A program made the translations under genes and the position numbers. The notes under the pieces were generated by a model that was given only the letters and a program-made list of their open reading frames with translations, did not search any database and was not told where the DNA came from. Positions 16,059-30,593 of a DNA stretch of 31,459 nt are shown in pieces (the stretch's first letter is position 1; each line of letters opens with the position of its first letter). Origin of the DNA: Phycisphaerae bacterium (GTDB taxonomy: Bacteria > Planctomycetota > Phycisphaerae > UBA1845). The stretch is taken from NCBI GenBank assembly GCA_046754365.1, contig JBHHVO010000001.1:1-31459 (forward strand). The letters run 5' to 3'.

Positions 16059-16357
16059 CCGCAGGTCCCAAAACCGACGCGAGCCACGGGGTTTCCAAAC
16101 CCGGACTGTTGGGGACGGACGTGGGACCCCGATCCGACCGCGTGCCCGCCGTCGGCGCGGTTGGCGAAGTACCGGGGACGGCGTCGTGACGCGGGCGGAT
16201 CCGGCGTCTGCCGGGTCGTGACGATCCGTCTCCGCGCGCTTGCTTCGCAAGGATGGGCGCCCGCGGTCATGTGCATCCGGGCTCGCGGCGCGGCGGCGGC
16301 GGCGGCGGGCGTAGCAGCGAACCTTCGCGCGAGCAGGCGGTCCGGGCCGGTTCGACC

Positions 16358-16393
16358 TATAATCATACGCGTGGTGCGGATCGCGGCCGCACC
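16358..16393 (+). promoter_or_regulatory. Putative promoter of the MoxR cluster (-10 box plus 5' hairpin)
   Basis: Perfect TATAAT at 16358-16363, hairpin GGTGCGG-7nt-CCGCACC at 16373-16393, purine-rich SD at 16431-16440. No recognisable -35 box. Confidence 0.5.
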
Positions 16394-16448
16394 GGGCGAT
16401 CGCCGGTCGGTCTGGTGGGCCGGTCTTTCCAGGAAGGGAGTTTGCCGC

Positions 16449-17729
16449 ATGTCCTCAGGACCGCAGTCCGGTTCGGCCGGTGAGCCCGTCGCCGACGGCG
16501 ACGATTCGACCGACACGGGGGTACCCAGATCCGCGGGCGCGGAGACGGCGGCAGGGTCGGCACCGCCGGCCGGGGGCGCTGACGCGCTTGGCGCCGCTGC
16601 GCCCGGTGGGGCGACGGTCGCGTCCGTGGCCGCCGGCGGTGGGGCGGTCGTGTCGGACGCCGGGTCGGACGACGTAGCACTCGTGGACAAGCTGGTCGAT
16701 GCGTACACGCGGATTCGGCATGAGATCGCGCGGGTGATTGTCGGTCAGGAATCCGTCTTGGAGGAGATGTTGATTGCGCTGTTTTGCAACGGCCACTGCA
16801 TTTTGGAGGGTGTGCCGGGGCTGGCCAAGACGCTCATGATCAGCACGCTGGCGCGGTCTCTGTCGCTGAGTTTCTCGCGGATTCAGTTCACGCCGGACCT
16901 GATGCCGTCGGACATCACGGGTACGGAGGTCATCGAGGAGGACAAGGGTACGGGGACGCGCTCGCTTCGCTTCGTGAAAGGGCCGGTGTTCGCGAACGCG
17001 GTGCTGGCCGACGAGGTCAACCGTACGCCGCCCAAGACGCAGGCGGCGTTGCTTGAAGCGATGCAGGAGAACCAGGTGACGGCGGCGGGTTTCCCGCACC
17101 GGCTTCCTCGGCCGTTCTTCGTGATGGCGACGCAGAATCCGATTGAACAGGAGGGCACGTATCCGCTGCCCGAGGCACAGCTCGATCGGTTCATGTTCAA
17201 GGTGTTGGTCGACTACCCATCGGAGGATGAGGAGTTCCAGATCGTCAAGCGCACCACGGCGCCGGTGGACCGCGCGGTGGAGCGCACACTCGACGCGCGC
17301 GAGATCATCAGCCTGCAGGACATCGTTCGGCGCGTGCCGTGTGCCGATCATGTTGTCCGTTACGCGATGCGGCTCGTCCGCTCGACGCGTGTGGATGAGG
17401 GTGACGTGCCGTCGTTCATCACGGATTACGTATCATGGGGTGCCGGGCCCCGTGCGTCGCAGTACCTCGTGCTCACCGGCAAGGCGCGCGCGATCCTGCA
17501 CGGCCGGTACTACGTGTCGTCGGACGACATCCGCGCCGTGGCCCACCCGGTTCTTCGTCACCGGATCCTCATGAACTTCAACGCCGACGCGGACGGCGTG
17601 ACCAGCGACAACATGGTCGACAGGCTGCTCGATGCGGTGTCGCTGGATCCACCGGTTACGTTGGACGAGGGAATGGCCAAGCGCGTGTTCGCGGCGCGCG
17701 ACCCTGAGCGGCCGGGGGAGGCGCGATGA
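16449..17729 (+). CDS. moxR: MoxR-family AAA+ ATPase
   Basis: Walker [24 protein letters not shown], Walker [52 protein letters not shown]. About 75-aa Ala/Gly/Asp-rich N-terminal extension. The symbol is a family-level name. Confidence 0.95.
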
Positions 17730-17828: not shown

Positions 17829-18767
17829 GTGGCACCGGACGAACCGAACTACCGCAGGTATCTCGATCCGAAGGTGCTCGGCCGCATCGGCAACCTTGAG
17901 CTTCGCGCCCGCCTGGTGGTGGAGGGCTTCTTCAGCGGGATGCACCGGAGCCCGCGCCGCGGGCTTTCCATCGAGTTCGCGGACCATCGGGTTTATACGC
18001 AGGGCGACGACATCCGTCATATCGATTGGAAGGTCTTCGGTCGCACGGACAAGTACTACATCAAGGAGTACGAGCAGGAGACGAACCTGAATCTCATGCT
18101 CCTGGTGGACTGTAGCGAGTCGATGGGCTATCGCTCGACGAACGAGACGATGAGCAAGCATGCGTATGCCGCGACGATCGCCGCGGCGGTGGCGTACCTG
18201 GCGCTGCAGCAACAGGATTCGGTGGGGCTCGCGCTGTTTGACGACCGGATCACGGAGTTTCTCAAGCCGTCGAACAGCACGCACCATTGGCGAGCGCTGG
18301 TGAAGGAACTCGATCGCGGGACCGGTCGGGTCGGCACGTCGATCGATCGGGTGTTGGGTGAGCTGGCCGATCGACTCAACCATCGGACGCTGGTGTTCAT
18401 GATCAGCGACCTGTTGGACGCACCGGATGCGATCATGCGCGGTCTGAAGCTGTTGCGCTATCGGCGGCATGAAATCGTCGTGTGCGGCGTGTGGGACCGG
18501 GCGGAACTCTCGTTTCCGTTCACGGGACCGACGCTGTTTGACGGCTTGGAGGGATCCGGAACGCTGCTGACCGAACCGCGATCGCTGCGGCAGCGCTATG
18601 TCGAAGCGGTGGAGCGGTTTCACGCGCGGATGCGGACCGGTTGCAGCCACATGCATGCGGATTATGTGTTGTTCAACACATCGTCGTCGTTGGACGTGGC
18701 GCTGAGCGCGTATCTGGCCACACGGAGCGCGCGCATCCGCCAGCGAAGCTCGCGCGTGCTGGGATGA
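17829..18767 (+). CDS. DUF58 protein (vWA-like, MoxR partner)
   Basis: SGMHRSPRRGLSIEFADHRVYTQGDDIRHIDWKVFGRTDKYYIKEYEQE, then LLVDCSESM (DxSxS) and MISDLL. Confidence 0.92.
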   Translation: MAPDEPNYRRYLDPKVLGRIGNLELRARLVVEGFFSGMHRSPRRGLSIEFADHRVYTQGDDIRHIDWKVFGRTDKYYIKEYEQETNLNLMLLVDCSESMGYRSTNETMSKHAYAATIAAAVAYLALQQQDSVGLALFDDRITEFLKPSNSTHHWRALVKELDRGTGRVGTSIDRVLGELADRLNHRTLVFMISDLLDAPDAIMRGLKLLRYRRHEIVVCGVWDRAELSFPFTGPTLFDGLEGSGTLLTEPRSLRQRYVEAVERFHARMRTGCSHMHADYVLFNTSSSLDVALSAYLATRSARIRQRSSRVLG

Positions 18768-18940: not shown

Positions 18941-21157
18941 ATGTCGTGTGCGGGGGTATTGGCGGTGGCGTTTCTTCATCCCGGACTCGCCGGTGCGGCG
19001 CTGGCGGCCGGTCTGGTTCCGATTCTGATCCATCTGATCAACCGTCGGCGCTACCGCCGGGTGTCGTGGGCGGCGATGTCGTTCCTGTTGGCGGCGAGCA
19101 AGCGAAGTATCCGTCGCGTTCGGCTCGAGCAGTGGCTGTTGTTGCTGGCGCGCGTGGCGCCTGTGGTTTTGCTGGGCCTTGCGCTCGCCCGGCCGTACGT
19201 CCCGGCGTCCGGTCTTGTTTCGCTCGGGGTGTCGCGGTCTCATCGCGTGGTCGTCATCGACAACTCGATGTCGATGAACGCGCGGTATGACGCGGCGCCG
19301 GGATCGGCCGGGGACAGGACGCGGTTTTCCGTCGCGATGGCCACGGCGAAACGGCTGGTGGCGTCGTTCCCGATGAAGGACGCCGTGAGCGTCGTCACAC
19401 TGGCCGCACCGGCGCACGCCGTGCTCGCACAGGCCGGGTATGATCGGCGATTCGTAGAGGAACAACTCGCGAAGGTCGCGCCGACGCATCGCGCCGCCGA
19501 TGTTGCCGGTGGGCTCGCGCATGCGCTTCGGATCGTGCGTTCGTCCGATGTGCCACCCCAAAACCGGGCCGTGTACGTTGTGTCGGATCTGGCGGGATCG
19601 ACGTGGCGCGCCGGTGCGTCGGCGGTCGCACCCGGACCGACGCAGGCGGCGCGGAGGCTCGCTGCGCTGGCGGACGCGGCGGCGGTGACCGTCGTGCGTA
19701 CGGCCGGCTCGGCGGAAGTCAACGCGGCCGTGACGAGCGTGGCCACGGAGTCGCCCGTGGTGGGGGTGAACCAGCCCATGCGCATCGCGGCGACGGTGAC
19801 GAACTTCGCCCCGCGCACGCTGCGCGGCGCGGCGCTTCAGGTGGCCCTGGATGGACGGATCATCCATCGGTTGAGCCTGCCCGCCGTGGAGCCCGGTGCA
19901 TCCCAGGTCATGTCGGCGACCACGCTATGCGCGACGCCGGACACGCACGCGATCTCGGCGAAGGTGGTGGGCGTGCCGGGCGACGCGCTGCCGGAGGACG
20001 ACGCGCGCCATCTTTCGATCACAGTGCGCCGAACGGTTCCGGTGTTGCTCGTGGACGGTCGTATCGGTCCGACGCCGCTTTCCGGGCAGGCGGGGTACCT
20101 GGCCACGGCGCTGGCTCCCAGACCGAGTGCCACGGACGTGTCACTGATTGAACCGAAGATCGTCACGGAGCTGGAGCTCGACGGGGAGGCGCTCGACCGC
20201 TACGACGTGGTGGCGCTCTGCAACGTGCGGCGGTTGTCCCAGGGCCAATGGAAGGACATTGCGGCCCATGTCGCGCGCGGCGGCGGGTTGATGGTGTTCG
20301 GCGGCGACCTGGTAAGCGTGGACAACTACAACCGGTTCGGCCATGCGGACGGGCGGGGCGTGCTGCCCGGCCGACTCGGGCGTCCCGCCGCGGCAGGTGA
20401 CGAGGCGGATGCCGGCGCCGGGATCGTGCTGGGCGACGAGCGCCATCCGATCGTCGCAGAGCTGGCCGCAGAGCCCAACAGCGGACTCTTCACGGCGCGC
20501 GTGGACAAGCATCTGACACTCGAGGTGACGCGCGAGGACGTGGACACACTGCTGCGCTACACGGATGCGGAACCGGCGATCGTGCTCGCTACGTTCGGGG
20601 AAGGCAGGGTGGCGCTGTGTACGACGACGGCCGACATGGCGTGGACGAACCTGCCGGCCAAGGGAGACTATGTGTCGTTGATGTCCAACATCGTGTCGTT
20701 CATCGCGCCCGCCCTCGGCGGGCACCGCAACGTGACCGTGGGGCAGATGGTCGTCGAGCCGCTGCGGCCCGCGCAAGCGTCGATGTCGCTGCGGGTCACC
20801 GCCGGCGACGGTCGGGCGGACGACGGACGGCTGGTACCGGATGGTGAAGACGGGCTCGCGCTGGCGTTCGGCCCGGTGGAGGACCCCGGCGTCGTGACGT
20901 GCGCCGTCGGTCCGGACCGCATCGTGTTCGCGGTCAACGTCGATCCAGCCGAGTCGGACATCGGTGGTGCGACGGGCGACGACCTCGAGGGGATCGCCGG
21001 AGCGGATGCAACAATCATCGACGACCCGTCCGAGCTAGAGCGACGGCACTACGCGCCCCGGGCCAGCGAGCTGGCGCTGCTGGCCATGTACGCCGCGGTC
21101 GCGCTGCTGTTTGGCGAGATGTGGCTGGCCATGCGGCTGGGCCTGCGCGGCGGCTGA
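18941..21157 (+). CDS. BatA-N / vWA / Ig-like / GATase1-like membrane protein
   Basis: BatA-type N-terminus PILIHLINRRR..VSWAAMSFL with two TM helices, MIDAS VIDNSMS, VSD, Ig-like ATVTNF strand, YDVVALCNV..GGGLMVFGG, C-terminal TM ending GEMWLA. Confidence 0.85.
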   Translation: MSCAGVLAVAFLHPGLAGAALAAGLVPILIHLINRRRYRRVSWAAMSFLLAASKRSIRRVRLEQWLLLLARVAPVVLLGLALARPYVPASGLVSLGVSRSHRVVVIDNSMSMNARYDAAPGSAGDRTRFSVAMATAKRLVASFPMKDAVSVVTLAAPAHAVLAQAGYDRRFVEEQLAKVAPTHRAADVAGGLAHALRIVRSSDVPPQNRAVYVVSDLAGSTWRAGASAVAPGPTQAARRLAALADAAAVTVVRTAGSAEVNAAVTSVATESPVVGVNQPMRIAATVTNFAPRTLRGAALQVALDGRIIHRLSLPAVEPGASQVMSATTLCATPDTHAISAKVVGVPGDALPEDDARHLSITVRRTVPVLLVDGRIGPTPLSGQAGYLATALAPRPSATDVSLIEPKIVTELELDGEALDRYDVVALCNVRRLSQGQWKDIAAHVARGGGLMVFGGDLVSVDNYNRFGHADGRGVLPGRLGRPAAAGDEADAGAGIVLGDERHPIVAELAAEPNSGLFTARVDKHLTLEVTREDVDTLLRYTDAEPAIVLATFGEGRVALCTTTADMAWTNLPAKGDYVSLMSNIVSFIAPALGGHRNVTVGQMVVEPLRPAQASMSLRVTAGDGRADDGRLVPDGEDGLALAFGPVEDPGVVTCAVGPDRIVFAVNVDPAESDIGGATGDDLEGIAGADATIIDDPSELERRHYAPRASELALLAMYAAVALLFGEMWLAMRLGLRGG

Positions 21158-21209: not shown

Positions 21210-23726
21210 GTGCGGGATGTGATTCAGTGGCTGTTGGGGCTTGAGCATATCCGCCTCGGGCGCGATGCGCCGATCGTGTTTCAATGGCAGCACGAGCCTC
21301 GGGCGTGGCTGCTGTTTTGCGCGGCGGTTGTGGGGGGGGCGTGCGTCGCGCTCGTGTACCGGCGCGAGCGCGTCTCGACGACGCGGCGTGTCGTGCTCGC
21401 GCTGTTGCGCTGCGGTATGTTGGCGCTCGTCGTGGCGGTCATCTGCCAGCCCGCGCTGGTGCTGCGGCAGGACCGCATCGAGCCCTCACATGTGGCCGTA
21501 CTGGTCGACACGTCGCGCAGCATGGCCGCGCGCGACGAGCCGACAGCGCCGGATAACGCGCCGCGGCCGAAGCCCGCTGCATCGATCGGCGCGGCGGGTC
21601 TGACGCAGGAAGAGATCGGACCTCGACCACGCGCGGAGGACACAGCCCGCGCGGACACGGCGGACGAGACAGAGCGTGTGACCGATGTCGGCGCGCCGGT
21701 GCGTCCGAGCCGCATCGAGCGCGCCCGCGAGGCGCTGTTGGGCAACGATGCGGCCGTGCTGAGGCAACTGCTGGGGCGTCACGCCGTTCAGTTGTACGGT
21801 TTCGCCGGCGGCACGGAGGCGCTGGCGTATGCCGGGTCGGTCGATGACTTACCGGCGCTTGTCGACGCCCTTGGCACGCTGGTCGCCGACGGCGCGAGCA
21901 CCGACCTCGACGGAGCGCTCGCGCATGTCATCCGTCATGGTGAGGGGCGGCGTCTGGCCGGCATCGTGCTGGCTACGGACGGGCGGTCGACGCAGGTCGG
22001 CGCGGCCCGCGCGTCGGCCGGGCTTCACGATGTGTTGGACCTTGCGCGGGGACGGAAGATTCCGATCTTTCCGATCCGTATCGGTTCCACGACGGTTCCG
22101 CCGGACATCGAGGTCGGCCCGCTGCGTGCGGATGAACAGGTCTTCGTCCATGACATCCTCGCGGTGGAGGCGGATGTGGCGGGTCGCGGACTCGTCGATG
22201 CCGCGGAGGTAACGGTCACGCTCACGGACGAGCGCACGGGCCTGCCGGTCGCGTCGAAGACGATGACGTTGACGCCGGCGGAGCCGGAGACGACCGTGGA
22301 GCTGCGGACCAAGCCGTCACAGTCCGGGCGCGTGCGTTATCGCGTGGAGGCAACGCCCATAGCGCGGGAGCGTGTGCGCTCGAACAACGTGGACCGGATC
22401 GACGTCAACGTGCTGGATGACCGCGTGGCCGTGCTCTACGTTGAGCTGTATCCGCGCTACGAGTATCGCTATTTGAAGAACGCCCTCCTCCGTGAGGAGA
22501 CGGTCGCGCTGAGCGTGCTCCTGCTGGAAGCCGACGAAGCGTTCGTACAGGAGGGCACGTATCCGATCCGGCGGTTTCCGGAAACGCCCGAAGAGCTCGA
22601 CCGGTTCGACGTCGTGGTGTTCGGCGACGTGGACCCGCGCGGCGGTTGGCTCACGCCGGCGCAGATGAAGATGCTGCTTGCGTTCGTCGGGGATCGAGGC
22701 GGGGGGTTTGCACTCATTGCCGGAGAGCGCTATGCGCCCCACCGCTACCGCGGCACACCACTCGAGAAACTCATCCCGGTACGCATCGATCCGGCGTTTA
22801 TGGGCCGGTATGAAGCGACGATCGTGACGAGCTTTCGGCCGAGGCTGACGTGGGAGGGACGTCACAGCCGCATCTACCGTTTCGCCGCCGATGAGGCCGA
22901 GAGCGCGGCGATGTTCGAGGCGCTGCCCGACCTGTACTGGGTCGCGCGGACGCTGGGCCCCAAGCCCGGCGCCACGCTGCTGGCGGAACACCCGACGATG
23001 CGAACCACGACGGGGCGGCTGCCGCTGGTGGTGATCGGGCGGTACGGCGCGGGCAAGATCTTCTTTCAGGCGACGGACGAAACCTGGCGGTGGCGCCGGC
23101 ACACCGGGGAGTTGCTCTACGACACGTACTGGGTGCGCGTCGTGCGCGAGCTAATGCGATCGCAGCGTGTCGGGCGCGATCACAGGTACGTCATTCGTAC
23201 GGATCGCCGGCGATACGCGTATGGCCAACCGGTGCGGACGCAGGTCGAGTTCGACGATTCGCAGTTGCTCGCGCAGCAGGGCGACGTCGTGGCGATCGCG
23301 GTTCGGGACGACGGCGCAGCACTGGTTGGACGGATCGACGCGCAGCGCGTCGCGCCCGATGCGGCGCTGTTCGAGGCGGTCTACGTGCCGCCACGGGCGG
23401 GGAGCTTCGAGCTGAAGGCGGCGGACATCACGCCGCGAACGGGTGATCGCCCCGTGTCGGCGCTGATCCACGTCCGCCGGGCCGACCTGGAATCGCGTCG
23501 ACCCGAGGCCGACCACGCCACGCTCGAGCGCATCGCCGACGTCACCGACGCCGTGGTCGTGGACCCGGAGGACGTGAGCGAGGTACTGGCCGGGATTCGC
23601 GATCGCAGCGCGCGGATCCCGGACGACGTTACCGAGCCGATATGGGACTCGAAGTTGGTTTTGGGACTTTTCGTTCTTATGATCAGTATGGAATGGGTGT
23701 TGCGCAAGGCGTTCGGACTCGTGTAG
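21210..23726 (+). CDS. Membrane vWA / Ig-like / GATase1-like (DUF1355-type) protein
   Basis: GGGAG SD, two N-terminal TM helices, MIDAS LVDTSRS, LATDG, FDVVVFGDVD..GGGFALIAG, YGAGKIFF.ATDETWRWR, C-terminal TM ending MEWVLRKAFGLV. Confidence 0.85.
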   Translation: MRDVIQWLLGLEHIRLGRDAPIVFQWQHEPRAWLLFCAAVVGGACVALVYRRERVSTTRRVVLALLRCGMLALVVAVICQPALVLRQDRIEPSHVAVLVDTSRSMAARDEPTAPDNAPRPKPAASIGAAGLTQEEIGPRPRAEDTARADTADETERVTDVGAPVRPSRIERAREALLGNDAAVLRQLLGRHAVQLYGFAGGTEALAYAGSVDDLPALVDALGTLVADGASTDLDGALAHVIRHGEGRRLAGIVLATDGRSTQVGAARASAGLHDVLDLARGRKIPIFPIRIGSTTVPPDIEVGPLRADEQVFVHDILAVEADVAGRGLVDAAEVTVTLTDERTGLPVASKTMTLTPAEPETTVELRTKPSQSGRVRYRVEATPIARERVRSNNVDRIDVNVLDDRVAVLYVELYPRYEYRYLKNALLREETVALSVLLLEADEAFVQEGTYPIRRFPETPEELDRFDVVVFGDVDPRGGWLTPAQMKMLLAFVGDRGGGFALIAGERYAPHRYRGTPLEKLIPVRIDPAFMGRYEATIVTSFRPRLTWEGRHSRIYRFAADEAESAAMFEALPDLYWVARTLGPKPGATLLAEHPTMRTTTGRLPLVVIGRYGAGKIFFQATDETWRWRRHTGELLYDTYWVRVVRELMRSQRVGRDHRYVIRTDRRRYAYGQPVRTQVEFDDSQLLAQQGDVVAIAVRDDGAALVGRIDAQRVAPDAALFEAVYVPPRAGSFELKAADITPRTGDRPVSALIHVRRADLESRRPEADHATLERIADVTDAVVVDPEDVSEVLAGIRDRSARIPDDVTEPIWDSKLVLGLFVLMISMEWVLRKAFGLV

Positions 23727-23849
23727 CCGCGCGCGGTCGCGCGCCCTCATTTGCTTGCCGGTGCGCGGCCGTGCCATGGTCCCCGCGCCGCCGGCCACGC
23801 GCCGTGGATGGCGCGCCGTACAGCACGCCATGTGCCGATAGATCGTGTG

Positions 23850-26800
23850 ATGCATAACGCCTGGCTTGAGGAATCACGGATACTCACACGCCTGACCGCG
23901 TTGCGTCGCACGATACGCCGCCGGTTGCTCGCGTATGGCGTCTGCGCGGTCCTGGCCGGCGGGATTGTGGCGTTTCTCGTGGCGGTCACGTTGGATTGGC
24001 TGTTGTGGTTGCCGGCCGCCCTGAGGGCCGTGGGGGTCGTGGCGTTCGTCTGCGGCTTCGTGGCCGCGGTCCGCCACTGGGTGTTCCGGCCGCTGTGCGC
24101 GGCGGTCACGGTGGATGAGATCGCCGGGCAACTGGAGCGACACTTCGGACATCTGCAGGACCGCCTCACGAGTGCGGTCAACTTCCTGGGCAACGCCGAC
24201 GCGGGCTCCCCGACCATGATGCGGCGGGTGGTGTTGAACACCGACCGTGTGCTCGACCACACGCCCCTGGCGTCCGCGCTGTCGCTCAGGCCGCTCGTCG
24301 TGCGCATGGTCCTGCTGGCGCTGTCGATGTCGGTGTTCGTTTCGATCGCTTGGTTCGGGCGCGATTGGGTACGGACCGGCATGTACCGCTACATCTACCC
24401 GATGGGCGAGATCGAATGGCCGCGCCGCGTGTCCATCGCGCCGCTGACCGGTCGCGAGACCGTCGCGATCGGCGATTCGTTGACCGTGCGGATGCGGGTG
24501 GTCCGCGGCCTCAACGACGCGCTCCGCGGCATCGTCGTCCTGCGTGATCCGGACGGGACGACCGCGTCGCTCGCCATGCAGCGTGACATCGACGGTACGT
24601 TCTACGCAACGATCGACGCGATCACGCGTGACGTCCAATACTGGTTCGAGGCCGGTGACGACAGCACGCAACGCACGTTGCAAACGATCCACGCCGTCCG
24701 CCGCCCCGAGGTTGCGGAGGCGCTCATTGAAATCCAACCGCCACCCTATGCGGCCGACCGCCCCGCGCGCGTGCGAACCCTGGACGCCACGCCCGTCCGT
24801 GCGCCCATCGGTGGGCATATCGTCGTGGCCGTGCGCGTGAGCAAGCCGGTCGTGACCGCGACAGACGCACCGGAGACGGGACTCAGGCTTGATGATGAGA
24901 CGTTCCTCCCGTTCACACCGGAAGCGGGTGACTCCGAGCAGCTCACCGCCAGGTTTCCCGTCGTCCAGGATGTCCGCTTCCGGATCGAGCTTGTCGACGT
25001 GCACGGTCTGCATAACCGCGGTTTTGACGTCTTCACCGTGGAGGCGATGCCGGACATGCCGCCGAGCGTGACGCTCGTGGAGCCCAAGGGCACGGTGGAA
25101 GCGACGACGAACGGCGCGGTGCGCGTCGTGGCGCGCGTCGAGGACGATTTCGGGATCAGCCGGCTTGAACTTCAGGCGGAAACACTCGCGGACGCGGACG
25201 TCCGCCCCGGTTCGCTGGTTCTGCAATCGCTGCTCGACCGCGTCGTGCCGGTGACCGACGATGCCGAAATCCTCGCGATGGCCCCGTACGACTGGCATCT
25301 CGCGAACCTGCACCTTGCAGCCGGAGATATCGTCGTCTACCGCGTCGTCGCCACCGACAACTTCGCCACCAGCCCGGACGGTGACGCGGCCGCATCGCGT
25401 CGTGCGCCCGGTCGTACCGGTGCATCCCGTGGCGCGGCCGGGCACACGGGCGCATCGGGCGACATGCGGATCAAGATCATCAGCGACGTCGAGTTCGAGA
25501 TACGCCTCCGCGATGATTTGGCCCTGCTCGAGGCGCGTATTCGTCAGGCGCGGTTGGACCAGCTCGACGTGCTCGACCGTACAACCACACTCGTTCGCGC
25601 CACAGACGGAGGCAGCGAATCCACGACGTCCGCGTCCCATGCCGAAGCCAGCCTGCTTTCGGTGCCGCAGCGGGACACGGCGGCGGCGCTGGCCGCTGAG
25701 CAAACGCGTCTCGTCCGTCGCGTACGGGAGCTGGCCCGGCGGTTCCGCGCGCTCACCGAGCGCATGGCCCGCAACCATGCCGGCGCGGACGACACGCGCC
25801 GCCGGATCGCCGACGCCGCCGACGAGTTGCTCCGTATCGCCACCGAACCGATGGCGACGGCGAGCGGCCACTTACGCGGCGTCAACGACGAACCCCGTGC
25901 CATCGCGCAACACGCGTCGCTGCGCACGGCGGCGGACCAGGAGCAGCTCGCCGCCGATGGTTTGGAGTCCCTGATCCGCACCATGACCCAATGGGGAAGC
26001 TTTCACGGTCTGCTCGCCAAGACCAAGGATCTCCTCGATCGCCAGCAGGCGCTGCGACGGACCACTACGGAGATCGGAGAAACCACGCTCGGCAAGCCGG
26101 TCGACGCGCTCACGCCGGAGGAACACGCCGAACTCACGCGAAACAAGAGGACGCAGGAACAACTCGGAGGCGACGTCGAGCAGCTTCTGGCGCGCATGAG
26201 ACAGTTGCTCGAGCAGACCGGAGAAACCGATCGCGCCGATGCCGCGACGCTCGAAGACGCGCTGCGGGCCGCGCAGTCGCGTGAGGTCCTCAAGCACCTC
26301 CGCGCGGCCGCGGCGGCGATCGAAGCCAATCGCACCGCGGCTGCGGCGATCGATCAGCGAACGGCGGAAGACGCGATCCGTAAGATCATCGACGCACTCA
26401 ACCAGCGAAACGATCGCCGACTCGCCGAGCTGCGGAAACACCTGCGCTCCGCCGAAGAACAAGTCGCCGACCTGATCGCCCAGCAGCAACTCGTCAGGGA
26501 TGCGACGGAGGAAGCGGCGCGGATGGGAACCGACGACACGACGTTGGGGCGCCTCGCCGACCGGCAGCATACGCTCCAGCGCAATACCCGACTTCTGGGT
26601 GAAGACCTGGCCGATGTGGTTCGCGCGGTGCGGGCGGCTCGTCTCGTACGTCAGGCCGTTGCGCCTATGGTACGGGCCGAAGACTCGCTCCGTACGACCG
26701 ACGTCGACGTCGCCACCGCGCGTCAGGACGATGCGCTCGCGACGCTCCGCGCTGCGCTGGAACAACTCGAGACCCTGGCCGACGAAACCGCACAAGAGGC

Positions 26801-27452
26801 AATGCGGCGTTCCCTCGCGCAGATCCGCGAGGCGCTAAGCGGCATGGTCGAGGCCCAGCGCAGCATCAACCGCGACATCGACGCCCTCGTGGCGCGCGCC
26901 GAAGGTCGCCGAAGACTCAGCCGGGCTCAAGCCCGGCGTGCGGCCAAGCTCGCTCGAGATCAGGCCGGCGTTCGCGCGCGCGTGGATGAGCTACGTCCCG
27001 AGCTCGAGAAGGTCGTCGTCTACGATTGGGCGCTACAGCGCGTAGCCGGCTGGATGGACACGGCGCGCGACCGGCTCGACCGCCGCGAGGTGGACGACGA
27101 GCTCGTCGCCACCACCACCCGCATCGTCCGCGAGCTCGAGAAGCTCATCGGCGCGATCGCGGAGACCGAGGCGATCCCGCTCCCGTCGGAGTTTGCCGAG
27201 GCGAACACCGGCGGCGGCGACGGCGGGCGCGGCGACGCGTCCGGCCACAAGCCGATCCCGACGATCGCGGAGCTACTCGTGCTCAAGGCGATGCAGATGG
27301 ATGTGAATCGCAGGACGCGCGCGCTGCACGACGCGTTCGACCCGGACGACGCGACGGAGCAGCAACTACGCGAACTACAAATGGTCGGCGAGGATCAGGC
27401 CGAGGTCCAACGCCTCACACAACGGGTGACGCAACGCGCGCGGCAGCCATAG
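23850..27452 (+). CDS. Large DUF4175-like membrane protein (3 TM, Ig-like domains, helical repeats)
   Basis: Three N-terminal TM helices, LQDRLTSAVNF, several beta-rich segments, DMPPSVTL, EDDFGI, then about 600 aa of Gln-punctuated helical repeats. ATG at 23850, 1200 aa. Confidence 0.8.
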   Translation: MHNAWLEESRILTRLTALRRTIRRRLLAYGVCAVLAGGIVAFLVAVTLDWLLWLPAALRAVGVVAFVCGFVAAVRHWVFRPLCAAVTVDEIAGQLERHFGHLQDRLTSAVNFLGNADAGSPTMMRRVVLNTDRVLDHTPLASALSLRPLVVRMVLLALSMSVFVSIAWFGRDWVRTGMYRYIYPMGEIEWPRRVSIAPLTGRETVAIGDSLTVRMRVVRGLNDALRGIVVLRDPDGTTASLAMQRDIDGTFYATIDAITRDVQYWFEAGDDSTQRTLQTIHAVRRPEVAEALIEIQPPPYAADRPARVRTLDATPVRAPIGGHIVVAVRVSKPVVTATDAPETGLRLDDETFLPFTPEAGDSEQLTARFPVVQDVRFRIELVDVHGLHNRGFDVFTVEAMPDMPPSVTLVEPKGTVEATTNGAVRVVARVEDDFGISRLELQAETLADADVRPGSLVLQSLLDRVVPVTDDAEILAMAPYDWHLANLHLAAGDIVVYRVVATDNFATSPDGDAAASRRAPGRTGASRGAAGHTGASGDMRIKIISDVEFEIRLRDDLALLEARIRQARLDQLDVLDRTTTLVRATDGGSESTTSASHAEASLLSVPQRDTAAALAAEQTRLVRRVRELARRFRALTERMARNHAGADDTRRRIADAADELLRIATEPMATASGHLRGVNDEPRAIAQHASLRTAADQEQLAADGLESLIRTMTQWGSFHGLLAKTKDLLDRQQALRRTTTEIGETTLGKPVDALTPEEHAELTRNKRTQEQLGGDVEQLLARMRQLLEQTGETDRADAATLEDALRAAQSREVLKHLRAAAAAIEANRTAAAAIDQRTAEDAIRKIIDALNQRNDRRLAELRKHLRSAEEQVADLIAQQQLVRDATEEAARMGTDDTTLGRLADRQHTLQRNTRLLGEDLADVVRAVRAARLVRQAVAPMVRAEDSLRTTDVDVATARQDDALATLRAALEQLETLADETAQEAMRRSLAQIREALSGMVEAQRSINRDIDALVARAEGRRRLSRAQARRAAKLARDQAGVRARVDELRPELEKVVVYDWALQRVAGWMDTARDRLDRREVDDELVATTTRIVRELEKLIGAIAETEAIPLPSEFAEANTGGGDGGRGDASGHKPIPTIAELLVLKAMQMDVNRRTRALHDAFDPDDATEQQLRELQMVGEDQAEVQRLTQRVTQRARQP

Positions 27453-27472
27453 CACGCAACGCAGAGAGGGAC

Positions 27473-28171
27473 ATGAGCATGCGGCGAAATCGCCTTGCAC
27501 CACGAACGCTTCGGGCGGTGGGCATCGTGCTCGGCGTCACCATCGCCGCGTCGTCCGGTCTGGCATCCGTGGCCCTTGCCGCCCAGGCACCACCGAAACC
27601 AGACGCGCCCAAGCCCAAACCCAGACCCAAGCCCGCGGGAGAGGACCTCTCCAAGAAACTCATCCGACAGGCCGCCGGCGATGCCGACGAAGACCTCATG
27701 TCCGAGATTATCCGCCTGATGGATGAGGCGTCGCGCAAACTCGCGCGCGATCTCGACGCCGGAACAGATACACAGGCCACGCAAGCGGCCGTCATGGCCA
27801 AGCTTGACGAGGTGATCAAACGGGCGGCCATGAACCAGCGCCGACCGTCCCAAAGCACACAGCAAACCCGCTCCGACAAACGCACCATGCCCAAACAACC
27901 GCACGACAAACGGGACCGTCCGTCCGGCGACACACGGCAGGACGCCGCCGCGCTCCCCACCGGCACCGTCGACGCCGGCAAGGGAAAGACGGACACGGAT
28001 ACCGCCGGGGCGTCCGGCGCGATGGGTGAGTGGCGCCGGACATGGGGCAACCTGCCCCAACGCGAGCGCGACGAGGTGATCCAGGGCCGCGGCGAGGCGT
28101 TCCTGGAACGCTACAGGGAGCTCATTGAACGATACTACCGTGCGCTGCAGGAGTCCCAGGAGAAACCGTGA
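27473..28171 (+). CDS. Secreted helical protein with WGxLP...YY C-terminal motif
   Basis: GAGAGGG SD, signal peptide ending ALA-AQ, Pro/Lys linker, helical core, Gln/Asp linker, tail WGNLPQRERDEVIQGRGEAFLERYRELIERYYRALQE. 232 aa. Confidence 0.78.
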   Translation: MSMRRNRLAPRTLRAVGIVLGVTIAASSGLASVALAAQAPPKPDAPKPKPRPKPAGEDLSKKLIRQAAGDADEDLMSEIIRLMDEASRKLARDLDAGTDTQATQAAVMAKLDEVIKRAAMNQRRPSQSTQQTRSDKRTMPKQPHDKRDRPSGDTRQDAAALPTGTVDAGKGKTDTDTAGASGAMGEWRRTWGNLPQRERDEVIQGRGEAFLERYRELIERYYRALQESQEKP

Positions 28172-29331
28172 ACACGCCCACACTGGAACTGCATCCACGC
28201 CGTCGTCCTGCACGGCGCGCCGCCTCGGCGTTGCGCACCGGTGCTGCATGGGTTGCCAGCCGGTGCGGGCGGCGGTGCGTCGCCGGTCCGCGCGGCCTGT
28301 CCAGATCCGGCCGGCGGTGGCTCGGCGTCGTCACGGTCGCGTGGTGCACGACCATTGCCACGGCGTTGGACCGGTCACCGCCGCACAAGGCGACACCCGT
28401 TGCGACGGAGATCACGCCGGAGCTCCGTGCGGCGGTTCGACGCGCGCTCGCGTGGCTTGCCCAGCAACAGGCGGAGGATGGATCGTACGGCAACCTGTCG
28501 CATTACGGCCCCCACGTCGGCATTACCGGTCTCGTGGGGCTCGCGTTCATGTCCGACGGGCACGTGCCGGGTCGAGGACGCTATGCCGATGTCGTGGACG
28601 GCTGCCTCCGGTTCGTGCTCGCGCACGGCTCCGAGAGCGGCCTGCTCGCGGCGGAAACGTCGCATGGGCCGATGTACGGGCATGGGTTTGCGACGCTCTT
28701 TCTGGCTGAAGTGTACGGCATGACGCCGCGGCGCGACGTACGGGAAACGCTGCGCAAGGCCGTCAGGCTCATCACGACGACCCAGAACGACGAGGGCGGT
28801 TGGCGATATCAACCCGTGCCGAACGACGCAGACCTTTCGGTTACGATCTGCGAAATCATGGCGCTTCGGGCGGCGCGCAACGCGGGCATTCACGTAGACA
28901 AGACGGTCATTGACGGCGCGATCGAGTATGTCAAGAAGAGCCAGAACCCCGACGGCGGCTTTCGCTACATGCTGCACTCGGGGGGGTCGCAGTTTCCGCG
29001 GTCGGCCGCCGGTGTCGCCGCGCTGCAATACGCCGGCATCTACGAAGGCCCGGAGCTCGAACGGGGCCTACAATATCTAATGAGGTTCCTGCCGCCGAAC
29101 GAGCAGGCGCTCGGCCACTACTTTTACGGGCACTACTACGCCGGCCAGGCCATGTTTCTCGCGGGTGACAACTACTGGCAGGTCTGGTGGCCCGCGGTGC
29201 GTGAGGAACTGCTCGGCAAACAGGCGCCCGAAGGCTTCTGGCGCGGGCAGGCGGGCACGGAATATGGGACAGCGATGGCGTCGATCATCCTTCAAATGCC
29301 GAACCGGCTCCTGCCGATCTTTCAAAAGTAG
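28168..29331 (+). CDS. Prenyltransferase/squalene-oxidase repeat protein ((alpha/alpha)6 barrel), probably exported
   Basis: QW-type repeats ALAWLAQQQAEDGSY, QNDEGGWRY, SQNPDGGFRY, QAPEGFW. Hydrophobic leader before LDRS. GTGA overlap with the upstream stop. Confidence 0.88.
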   Translation: MNTPTLELHPRRRPARRAASALRTGAAWVASRCGRRCVAGPRGLSRSGRRWLGVVTVAWCTTIATALDRSPPHKATPVATEITPELRAAVRRALAWLAQQQAEDGSYGNLSHYGPHVGITGLVGLAFMSDGHVPGRGRYADVVDGCLRFVLAHGSESGLLAAETSHGPMYGHGFATLFLAEVYGMTPRRDVRETLRKAVRLITTTQNDEGGWRYQPVPNDADLSVTICEIMALRAARNAGIHVDKTVIDGAIEYVKKSQNPDGGFRYMLHSGGSQFPRSAAGVAALQYAGIYEGPELERGLQYLMRFLPPNEQALGHYFYGHYYAGQAMFLAGDNYWQVWWPAVREELLGKQAPEGFWRGQAGTEYGTAMASIILQMPNRLLPIFQK

Positions 29332-30593
29332 TGTACTTCCGACGCGTCACACACGGTCCGTTCATCGTCTTGGCGGCGTTGTCGTGCGCCGCCGCGGTGG
29401 CACCACCCGCCGAAGCGTTCCGCAGCGCCGGCGACGTCGTCACCAAGACGCTCACCGAGGACGCCGTCACCGGCCGACTCGTCACGTTTTCCATCGCCGA
29501 CGGGCTCGTGCTCGGCGGTGCAGGCGGGCCGGACCGCAGGATACCCACGGACGATATCGTGCGGCTTACCGCGGCACCGACGGACACCGCCACGCACGTC
29601 GCGCCCCGTCCGCTCCCGGGAGAAATCACACTGCGCCTCGTCGGCGGCGACCTGCTCATCGGGCGCATCACCGGCATGAACGAGACCGACGAGGCCGTCT
29701 TCGTCCGCACGCGCGATCTCGGTGAAGTCGCGATACCGCTCGAGTCGCTTGTGGCGGCCGTCCGAAACGCACGCTCGAGGCGGGCGCTTCACGTGGGGCA
29801 AGGCCCCGACGGCGCAACCACGGCCCGACAGGCGGTACGCCCGTACGAAGACACGATCTTCCTTGCCAATGGCGACACGCTCACCGGCTTCGTCACGGCC
29901 ATCGACCCAGACGGCGTCGTCGTCGAGTCCGCCCGTGGCGAGACCACGGTAGCCCTGCGCCTCATCGCCGCCATACACTTCGCGGCCGCGGAGCCGCAGC
30001 GACTCGAGGGCAAACACGTCATCCTCACGCTCCTCACAAGCGGACGGCTGACGGTGACCAGCCTCAACTGGTCCGACGACATCATCCGCGCGACGCTCCG
30101 CCATGGTCCCGACGTGCTCATCGAGGCCGAGCGGGTCGCGGCCGCCGATGTCGTGGGCGGCCGGTGGGAATGGCTCTCCCAGCATCAACCCATCAGCTAC
30201 GAACACACGCCCATGCTGTCACTCGGGTGGGACTACGCCCGCGACCGCAACGTCCTTGGCCAGCCCATCCGCGTACGCGGCGAAACGTTCTCCCGCGGCA
30301 TCGGGGTGCACAGCCGCTCCAAGCTCACGTACGATCTCAAGGGTGCATACCGCGCGTTCGTCACGAGCCTCGCGCTCGATGATGCGAGCGGCCCGCTCGC
30401 CGACGTGACGGCGGTCATACAGGTGGACGGGCAAACGCGTTTCACCCGCAACGGCATCCGCGCCGGCGACATCGTCGGCCCGATTCGCATCGACGTATCC
30501 GGCGCGAAGCGTATCGAACTCATCGTCGATTTCGGAAGAAACGGAGACATCCAGGACCGATTCAACTGGATCGAGGCGGCGCTCATTCGCTAG
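29331..30593 (+). CDS. Exported protein with four small beta-repeat modules and a C-terminal NPCBM/NEW2 domain
   Basis: Signal peptide (FIVLAALSCAAAVA). C-terminal GETFSRGIGVHS.SKLTYDL.G.YRAF...ALDD....V...I.VDG.....I.IDVSGAKRIELIVD.G..GD..D..NW. One-nt overlap with the upstream stop. Confidence 0.88.
   Translation: MYFRRVTHGPFIVLAALSCAAAVAPPAEAFRSAGDVVTKTLTEDAVTGRLVTFSIADGLVLGGAGGPDRRIPTDDIVRLTAAPTDTATHVAPRPLPGEITLRLVGGDLLIGRITGMNETDEAVFVRTRDLGEVAIPLESLVAAVRNARSRRALHVGQGPDGATTARQAVRPYEDTIFLANGDTLTGFVTAIDPDGVVVESARGETTVALRLIAAIHFAAAEPQRLEGKHVILTLLTSGRLTVTSLNWSDDIIRATLRHGPDVLIEAERVAAADVVGGRWEWLSQHQPISYEHTPMLSLGWDYARDRNVLGQPIRVRGETFSRGIGVHSRSKLTYDLKGAYRAFVTSLALDDASGPLADVTAVIQVDGQTRFTRNGIRAGDIVGPIRIDVSGAKRIELIVDFGRNGDIQDRFNWIEAALIR

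Follow-up and report, generated by a model that had tools for sequence, protein, structure and literature searches.

We analysed a 31,459-nucleotide (nt) stretch of DNA from a Phycisphaerae bacterium (assembly GCA_046754365.1, contig JBHHVO010000001.1, positions 1–31,459; hereafter the window) in which a gene for a large DUF4175-like membrane protein (P0001; 23751–27452; 1233 amino acids (aa) as the open reading frame (ORF) is drawn) is followed by a gene for a small protein (P0004; 27473–28171; 232 aa, ATG at 27473). Coordinates are window positions, and both genes and the features within them lie on the forward strand. The small gene probably encodes a separately Sec-exported subunit of a DUF4175-like envelope rod, one that our models place as the completing half of the rod's last four-helix bundle. 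Three independent in silico tests, drawing on sequence and on predicted structure, support this core interpretation.

The rod alternates two kinds of helical hairpin, M and S. The large protein would stop after its fifth M hairpin (M4, residues 1171–1231), hung on a Gly-rich tether, and the missing fifth S hairpin (S5) would be supplied by residues 70–122 of the small protein. In the periplasm, S5 may pack onto the tethered M4 and so complete the last four-helix bundle. Docking of S5 would also fix a flexible linker of ~60 residues and a WGxLP...YY tail at the far end of the rod. A separately encoded C-terminal piece would need its own export signal; the small protein appears to have one, and the fused forms described below lack it. 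We infer the binding of the two proteins in the cell, the periplasmic site of both and the role of the tail.

The break between the genes was first noticed in a sequence-only reading, which described a large protein ending on the first half of a repeat module (QMDVNRRT ... QAEVQRLT, then stop) and, 20 nt on, a gene with a signal peptide, a Pro/Lys linker and a WGNLP...YY tail. Both halves of that description hold. The two motifs occupy residues 1182–1189 and 1216–1223 and are followed by QRVTQRARQP and a TAG stop codon at 27450–27452. The end point is conserved, with 19 of 19 orthologous large proteins stopping right after M4. The 20-nt intergenic spacer (27453–27472) reads as containing a GAGAGGG Shine-Dalgarno-like stretch.

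The translated small protein begins MSMRRNRLAPRTLRAVGIVLGVTIAASSGLASVALA|AQ, then APPKPDAPKPKPRPKPA. Its N-terminus is a putative Sec signal peptide (residues 1–37; 27473–27583), with an Arg-rich n-region, a hydrophobic core (Kyte-Doolittle maximum 1.95) and ALA followed by AQ; its homologues have in common a hydrophobic stretch ending in A/G-Q. A Pro/Lys linker that varies among homologues (residues 38–56; 27584–27640) leads into the S5 helical domain, the second half of the last unit (27641–27838), which an AlphaFold2 (AF2) model resolves into helices at 57–67, 70–92 and 98–122 and which matches the S profile described below. The repeat-like stretches IIRLMDEASRKL (79–90) and TQATQAAVMAKL (100–111) lie within it. 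Residues 123–182 (27839–28018) form a disordered low-complexity linker (predicted local distance difference test (pLDDT) score 39–54) in which the alignment shows a conserved DKRxMP motif. The protein closes with a conserved tail, RRxWGxLPxRERxEVIQG..FLERYR..IERYYRALQE (residues 183–232, plus the stop codon; 28019–28171), whose motifs here are WGNLP (191–195) and ERYY (219–222).

The helical rod of the large protein covers residues 579–1231 (25485–27443). We delimited it with the AF2 model and with a window-by-window hhalign profile scan over an alignment of the 19 orthologous large proteins. In the scan, M-type elements fall at about 600–678, 761–829, 900–961, 1027–1084 and 1173–1229 and S-type elements at about 697–748, 844–885, 969–1009 and 1094–1137, giving the order M0 S1 M1 S2 M2 S3 M3 S4 M4, or four and a half four-helix units. 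M4 and M3 match reciprocally (P 1e-5), S3 matches S1 (P 2.6e-4) and M2 matches M1 (P 6e-4); internal matches with P above 1e-4 are suggestive only, because the reversed-window controls were partly contaminated by Gly-rich low complexity. Only the window scan brought repeats to light: self-BLAST of the large protein gave no off-diagonal matches, and the self-comparison mode of hhalign returned nothing.

Modelled with AF2, the last 680 residues (pLDDT 85.5, predicted template modelling score 0.73) give the repeat a physical form. Inside each unit, helices Ma-Mb-Sa-Sb are joined by loops of 3–7 residues, and Sb of one unit runs into Ma of the next as one continuous helix (862–925 and 985–1050). 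As modelled, the M+S plan is that of tandem four-helix bundles. The last complete unit ends with the S4 hairpin (residues 1089–1141; 27015–27173). From unit 4 to M4 runs a disordered tether (residues 1142–1170; 27174–27260; pLDDT below 50 over model residues 594–616) that is GGG-rich in all orthologues. Beyond it, M4 (27261–27443; helices 1171–1195 and 1203–1231) stands as the unpaired first half of a last unit and is the predicted docking site.

Profile comparison assigns the hairpin of the small protein to the S type. Single-sequence BLAST between the small protein and the repeat was not significant (E 0.017–0.17), and we compared profiles, using a broad hairpin profile (alignment A2, 54 sequences) that joins orthologues with the C-terminal halves of 22 paralogues. 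In hhalign, this S5 profile came closest to S4 among the internal elements (P 1.5e-5 over 46 aligned columns, probability 79%), and it matched the pooled S profile still better (P 6.3e-6, probability 85%), in line with the earlier suggestion that the helices of the small protein resemble the repeat. The match to S3 was weaker (P 0.013), the pooled M profile gave P 0.13 and reversed queries gave 0.035–0.16. S5 and the S elements have in common the pattern M-x-x-A-x-x-x-L, loop, Q-x-x-[AI]-x-x-x-L-x-x-[AL]-I. By these profiles S5 is homologous to the internal S elements, not to the M type.

Complex prediction places S5 where the missing half would sit. We modelled residues 985–1233 of the large protein (alignment A3) with residues 57–232 of the small protein (alignment A1), alongside three controls. 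The interface score ipSAE was 0.63, 0.62 and 0.66, and the best of the three controls reached 0.01; of solved complexes, 58 of 80 attain this mark, and of mismatched pairs 2 of 110, an approximate guide here, our own alignments having been used. Runs had at least 38% of contacts in common, with a partner pLDDT of 52–53. The confident predicted interface is exactly M4 (1169–1196 and 1206–1231) against S5 (73–122), with the tail outside it. Its closest predicted pairs bring the invariant Gln and Thr residues of the M4 motifs (Q1182, T1189, Q1216) together with T100, Q104, L111 and I115. No helices of the rod are more conserved than M4a and M4b (mean column identity 0.64 and 0.58), and predicted interface positions are more conserved than other positions in both partners (0.64 versus 0.53, p 0.03; 0.72 versus 0.57, p 0.011).

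Nature also supplies the two proteins as one chain. A search of longer proteins with a single sequence as query brought up no fused forms, and the best 150 matches of an exhaustive small-protein profile search were all 147–452 aa long. Fused chains surfaced only when long proteins were searched with the profile, which uncovered P0257 (1401 aa), P0258 (1418 aa; named by NCBI 'DUF4175 family protein [Tepidisphaeraceae bacterium]') and P0261–P0265 (1393–1413 aa), and a scan of 301 genomes of the phylum added fused versions of 1411–1436 aa in four closed genomes of one genus in the same class. These chains are collinear with the large protein and then the small one: M4, an acidic or Pro-rich linker of 50–110 residues, S5, a low-complexity stretch and the tail. 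Their junction has no stretch resembling a signal peptide (Kyte-Doolittle maximum at most 1.0, versus 1.95 for the leader of the small protein). The P0258 and P0261 genes both stand after a gene for a 750–940-aa protein and immediately before a toroid gene, in loci that contain DUF58 and BatA genes and, visibly for P0261, also MoxR. One mark of a Rosetta-stone pair is thus present, namely single-chain homologues collinear with both genes in orthologous context; physical association of the two products, the other mark, is predicted (ipSAE 0.63, best control 0.01). Fused homologues and a predicted M4–S5 interface were among the checks put forward with the sequence-only reading. Both turned out in its favour, and none of the outcomes it had named as contrary (no fused homologues, no predicted interface, helices off the repeat profile) occurred.

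Several further observations concern the fused chains. Fused forms L064–L067 (g42) carry long poly-Gln runs in the linker between S5 and the tail, at residues of about 1320–1370. In one clade (L064–L070; P0261–P0265) the mature small protein begins P(T/S)LD(D/E)LLG(I/L), a motif that recurs in the fused-form linker, where it is preceded by a fast-evolving stretch, e.g. PFGFMMPAVWTAWEA; the stretch PFGFMMPAVWTAWEA could be a decayed leader. P0259 (929 aa) and L071 (G144:C150, a 1347-aa frame) keep an internal stretch resembling a signal peptide (Kyte-Doolittle 2.0–2.2) and are doubtful as fusions; each of the two may represent a fusion of very recent date, a read-through frame or an assembly error. 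We set aside two long frames around the match, one in G219 (1158 aa) and one in G319 (1035 aa), as frame artefacts of high GC content and not fusions.

The split appears to be old and is the dominant state. All 22 orthologous two-gene loci examined (19 plus G278, G041 and G212) have the split layout. A quick maximum-likelihood tree built from the rod part, with the paralogous coiled-coil proteins as root, requires at least two changes of state: fused forms fall at two positions, and one of these lies inside a clade that has split members as well. Because they sit among split ones, the fused forms look like secondary fusions, and parsimony with a split outgroup favours an old two-gene state with later fusions as the most likely course, on a tree whose support (Shimodaira-Hasegawa-like approximate likelihood ratio test only), uneven amino-acid composition and distant outgroup leave the direction of change unsettled. 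The homology of S5 to the internal S elements still implies an earlier single-gene stage and with it an ancient fission. The sequence-only reading had offered gene fission or donor-helix complementation: a separately exported piece does complete the bundle in silico, and a recent fission is unlikely given that the genes are split in all 22 orthologous loci and in a paralogous system as well.

How firmly this evidence holds depends on what else could produce it. Amphipathic helices can resemble one another by chance, and both the non-significant BLAST and a profile built from orthologues only (P 0.002–0.02) are what chance likeness would give. We think such a coincidence very improbable: the broader profile reaches P 6e-6 to 1.5e-5 over the whole hairpin and prefers S over M where reversed controls attain only 0.035–0.16, and the fused homologues are independent support. 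A different kind of accident would be a recent disruption, in which a nonsense or frameshift mutation broke a single gene and left the small ORF as a remnant. Relatives with single-gene versions fit that account. We give it almost no credence, as the two-gene layout recurs in all 22 orthologous loci, the small gene comes with a Shine-Dalgarno-like site and a signal peptide of its own, and its family comprises 5412 representative clusters in a profile search (E <= 0.001).

A rival that we take more seriously, while still judging it unlikely, grants the S hairpin its descent and denies its docking. The small protein would then be an independent periplasmic adaptor, for example a hairpin homodimer or a protein bound to the toroid or NPCBM product of the operon, and M4 would pair with another M4 or stand alone. 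Three features suit this account: a paralogue carries the hairpin behind a TPR-like domain of ~200 aa, so that the hairpin need not be an N-terminal cap; conservation in the small protein peaks in its tail, which has no counterpart in the rod; and M4 and S5 are parted in the fused forms by a long, probably disordered linker. Against it stand the fixed order of M4 then S5 in fused forms from the same operon, the confinement of the predicted interface to M4 and S5 (0.63, best control 0.01) and the unpaired M element on which the large proteins always end.

Several points weigh against a separately exported subunit that completes the rod. Every line of evidence for it is computational. The orthologue-only hairpin profile is weak (P 0.021 against the rod, 0.0022 against pooled S), and the S match turns strong only once paralogues join the profile. 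The complex model may dock S5 on M4 merely by copying the internal packing of S on M, and the conserved interface positions coincide with the core-facing positions of any helical hairpin. Packing of M(i) with S(i+1) in the rod is itself deduced from helix boundaries and loop lengths, not contacts. The topology, with both partners periplasmic, depends on transmembrane (TM) segments judged by eye. Finally, the reading does not account for the function of the tail, where conservation in the small protein is highest.

The tail deserves separate attention. In the AF2 model of the small protein it is helical (183–230), and W191, G192, R199, Q204, R215 and Y222 are invariant in 54 orthologues and paralogues. 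The linker between S5 and the tail is highly variable in length and composition over the family, and its flanks are conserved. A tail profile found no counterpart in the rod (hhalign P 0.12–0.31), and we dropped a pairwise hint of similarity to M0 (E 0.05–0.17). More widely, of 301 genomes sampled across the phylum, 154 have a member of the small-protein family, and the database names of close homologues of the small protein point to Planctomycetota, class Phycisphaerae. The small protein matched no Pfam or NCBIfam family and no sequence in the PDB, and against PF13779 it gave no match at E <= 10; a search with PF13779 over 54 family members gave one match (E 0.015). Atlas look-alikes were unnamed planctomycete clusters and one weak DUF4175-tagged cluster (score 0.79).

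A paralogous system repeats the arrangement with different parts. Carried by the same genomes, it was seen in 24 loci, where the first gene encodes a secreted coiled-coil protein whose end is an M-type hairpin and the next a 350–450-aa paralogue of the small protein, laid out as a TPR-like head of ~200 aa, an S hairpin, a low-complexity stretch and the same tail. An NPCBM gene follows the paralogue in 22 of 24 loci. The sequence-only reading had also suggested that the small protein might recruit the barrel enzyme encoded next, here the toroid. This idea is weakened, and the tail is unlikely to be a toroid-specific recruiter, because all 24 paralogous loci retain the tail and the toroid gene is missing from every one. 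Several of these loci (L014, 545–4823; L015, L048, L052 and L057) divide a DUF4175-like protein between two genes, one for the TM+beta-domain part and one for a coiled-coil part that is secreted separately; the DUF4175-like family is therefore cut at more than one place.

The source genome itself (G000) encodes such a paralogue on contig 2 (L013, 2555–6085): a protein of ~390 aa with a WGxMP...YY tail, followed by an NPCBM paralogue and preceded, where relatives have the secreted coiled-coil gene, by a gene that by eye resembles an L,D-transpeptidase. Two queries did not find the coiled-coil partner of the paralogous system in this genome, which is 65% complete, so that its absence is not implied. 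With both S-hairpin proteins in one genome, one might imagine the M hairpin at the rod end as a socket and the 232-aa protein and the TPR-headed paralogue as interchangeable plugs, giving one and the same periplasmic rod a choice of tips, whose loading or exchange might fall to the MoxR/VWA part of the operon. We regard this as speculative and improbable.

The large protein belongs to DUF4175 by the Pfam standard: residues 328–537 score 33.9 bits against PF13779, above the gathering threshold of 27.3. A second stretch matches model positions 665–752, for an in-frame sum of 40.3 bits, and of the 825-position model only positions 190–378 and 665–752 are matched. The protein consists of N-terminal TM helices, a beta-rich part and the helical rod. 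Because of its Arg-rich N-terminus and three hydrophobic segments (~58–80, 88–108 and 183–203, judged by eye), its bulk would lie outside the cytoplasm. The ORF as drawn begins with TTG (window 23751–23850). Orthologues align to it from residue ~40 through 1230–1233, and because they align only from there its true start is probably Met20 or Met34.

The gene pair stands near the end of a co-oriented cluster. It opens with genes for a MoxR AAA+ ATPase (16161–17729; AAA_3, E 3.9e-62), a DUF58 protein (17829–18767; DUF58, E 7e-49), a BatA-type, double-TM VWA protein (18941–21157; BatA, E 5.8e-14; TIGR02226, E 1.2e-18) and a second VWA-like membrane protein of 838 aa (21210–23726). Past the large and small genes come, on the forward strand, a toroid gene (28168–29331), encoding an exported prenyltransferase/squalene-cyclase-like alpha/alpha toroid (Pfam PF13243, PF13249 and PF00432), and a gene for an NPCBM-domain protein (29331–30593; Pfam PF08305, E 2.4e-29). 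MoxR, DUF58 and a BatA-type VWA gene thus stand together upstream, as in Bat or MoxR-DUF58-VWA operons. None of the cluster genes scanned encodes a BatC- or BatE-type TPR or SH3 protein, no search having been aimed at these. Passages in two papers (PMC5700661, PMC3557215) describe Bacteroides and Rhizobium mutants in operons of the Bat/cmdA-D kind as having aerotolerance or envelope defects, with the mechanism not known. A passage in PMC5700661, citing Vanderlinde et al. 2011, reports envelope and morphology defects for mutants of the Rhizobium RL3499–RL3502 operon.

In 12 of 12 loci, with the window counted, the toroid gene comes immediately after the small gene, and 7 further loci have it after the small or the fused gene; it takes this place in every orthologous locus examined. 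In the window the GTG of the toroid ORF overlaps the TGA of the small gene (GTGA, 28168–28171), which suggests translational coupling of the two. The N-terminal ~60 residues of the toroid are Arg-rich and show little conservation, and the real start may for that reason lie further downstream than drawn.

Among known systems, the nearest are the DUF4175 (PF13779) proteins of MoxR-DUF58-BatA operons ('Bat'/cmdA-D type), which the large protein resembles in passing the Pfam cut-off and in its operon neighbours. The small protein, belonging to no Pfam or NCBIfam family, sets the pair apart from canonical DUF4175. Canonical DUF4175 proteins might be single-chain versions, as is weakly hinted by a fused planctomycete protein, P0260 (913 aa), whose residues 720–913 (S plus tail) align to PF13779 positions 673–814 at E 1.9e-4, below the cut-off. 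In the literature, DUF4175 occurs in an unrelated Acinetobacter division protein that bears the domain (PMC7481262). With Rosetta-stone gene pairs, which form one protein in some genomes and two neighbouring genes in others, the large and small genes share collinear fused and split forms in orthologous operons, and a break inside one structural unit, from which the halves would be expected to reassemble. They differ in that the break cuts through a repeat unit of a rod and does not separate catalytic domains, and in that the downstream half, since the two would reassemble outside the cytoplasm, bears a Sec signal peptide of its own.

Structural analogies are broader. The rod model, a chain of bundles with long shared helices, resembles the tandem four-helix bundles of vinculin, alpha-catenin and talin. 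Foldseek against the PDB placed vinculin, alpha-catenin, talin and spectrin at the top without significance: no match reached E <= 0.001, and the best had E 9.3e-3 and a template modelling (TM) score of 0.19. With no sequence relation, the analogy is one of architecture only. In WXG100 (EsxA/EsxB) heterodimers, two helix-turn-helix hairpins from separate polypeptides form one four-helix bundle, and in chaperone-usher pili, donor-strand complementation completes the fold of a pilus subunit with a piece of another exported protein. Neither is homologous to the large/small pair, in which one hairpin ends a 1200-aa repeat protein and the complementing piece would be helical, not a beta strand. The principle, that of a Rosetta-stone pair or of a fold completed in trans, is a familiar one. 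To our knowledge, the separate export of half a helical repeat unit is a form not described before.

DUF4175 proteins and MoxR-DUF58-BatA operons are very widespread, and the split pair gives their system a testable architecture: M+S four-helix units, the last of which would be built from two polypeptides outside the cytoplasm. It defines a new conserved family and points to residues for mutation. It would also be a natural case of a repeat unit split over two exported proteins, with the fused versions as built-in controls. Were the socket-and-plug idea true, it would make the DUF4175 system a modular envelope scaffold whose assembly is controlled.

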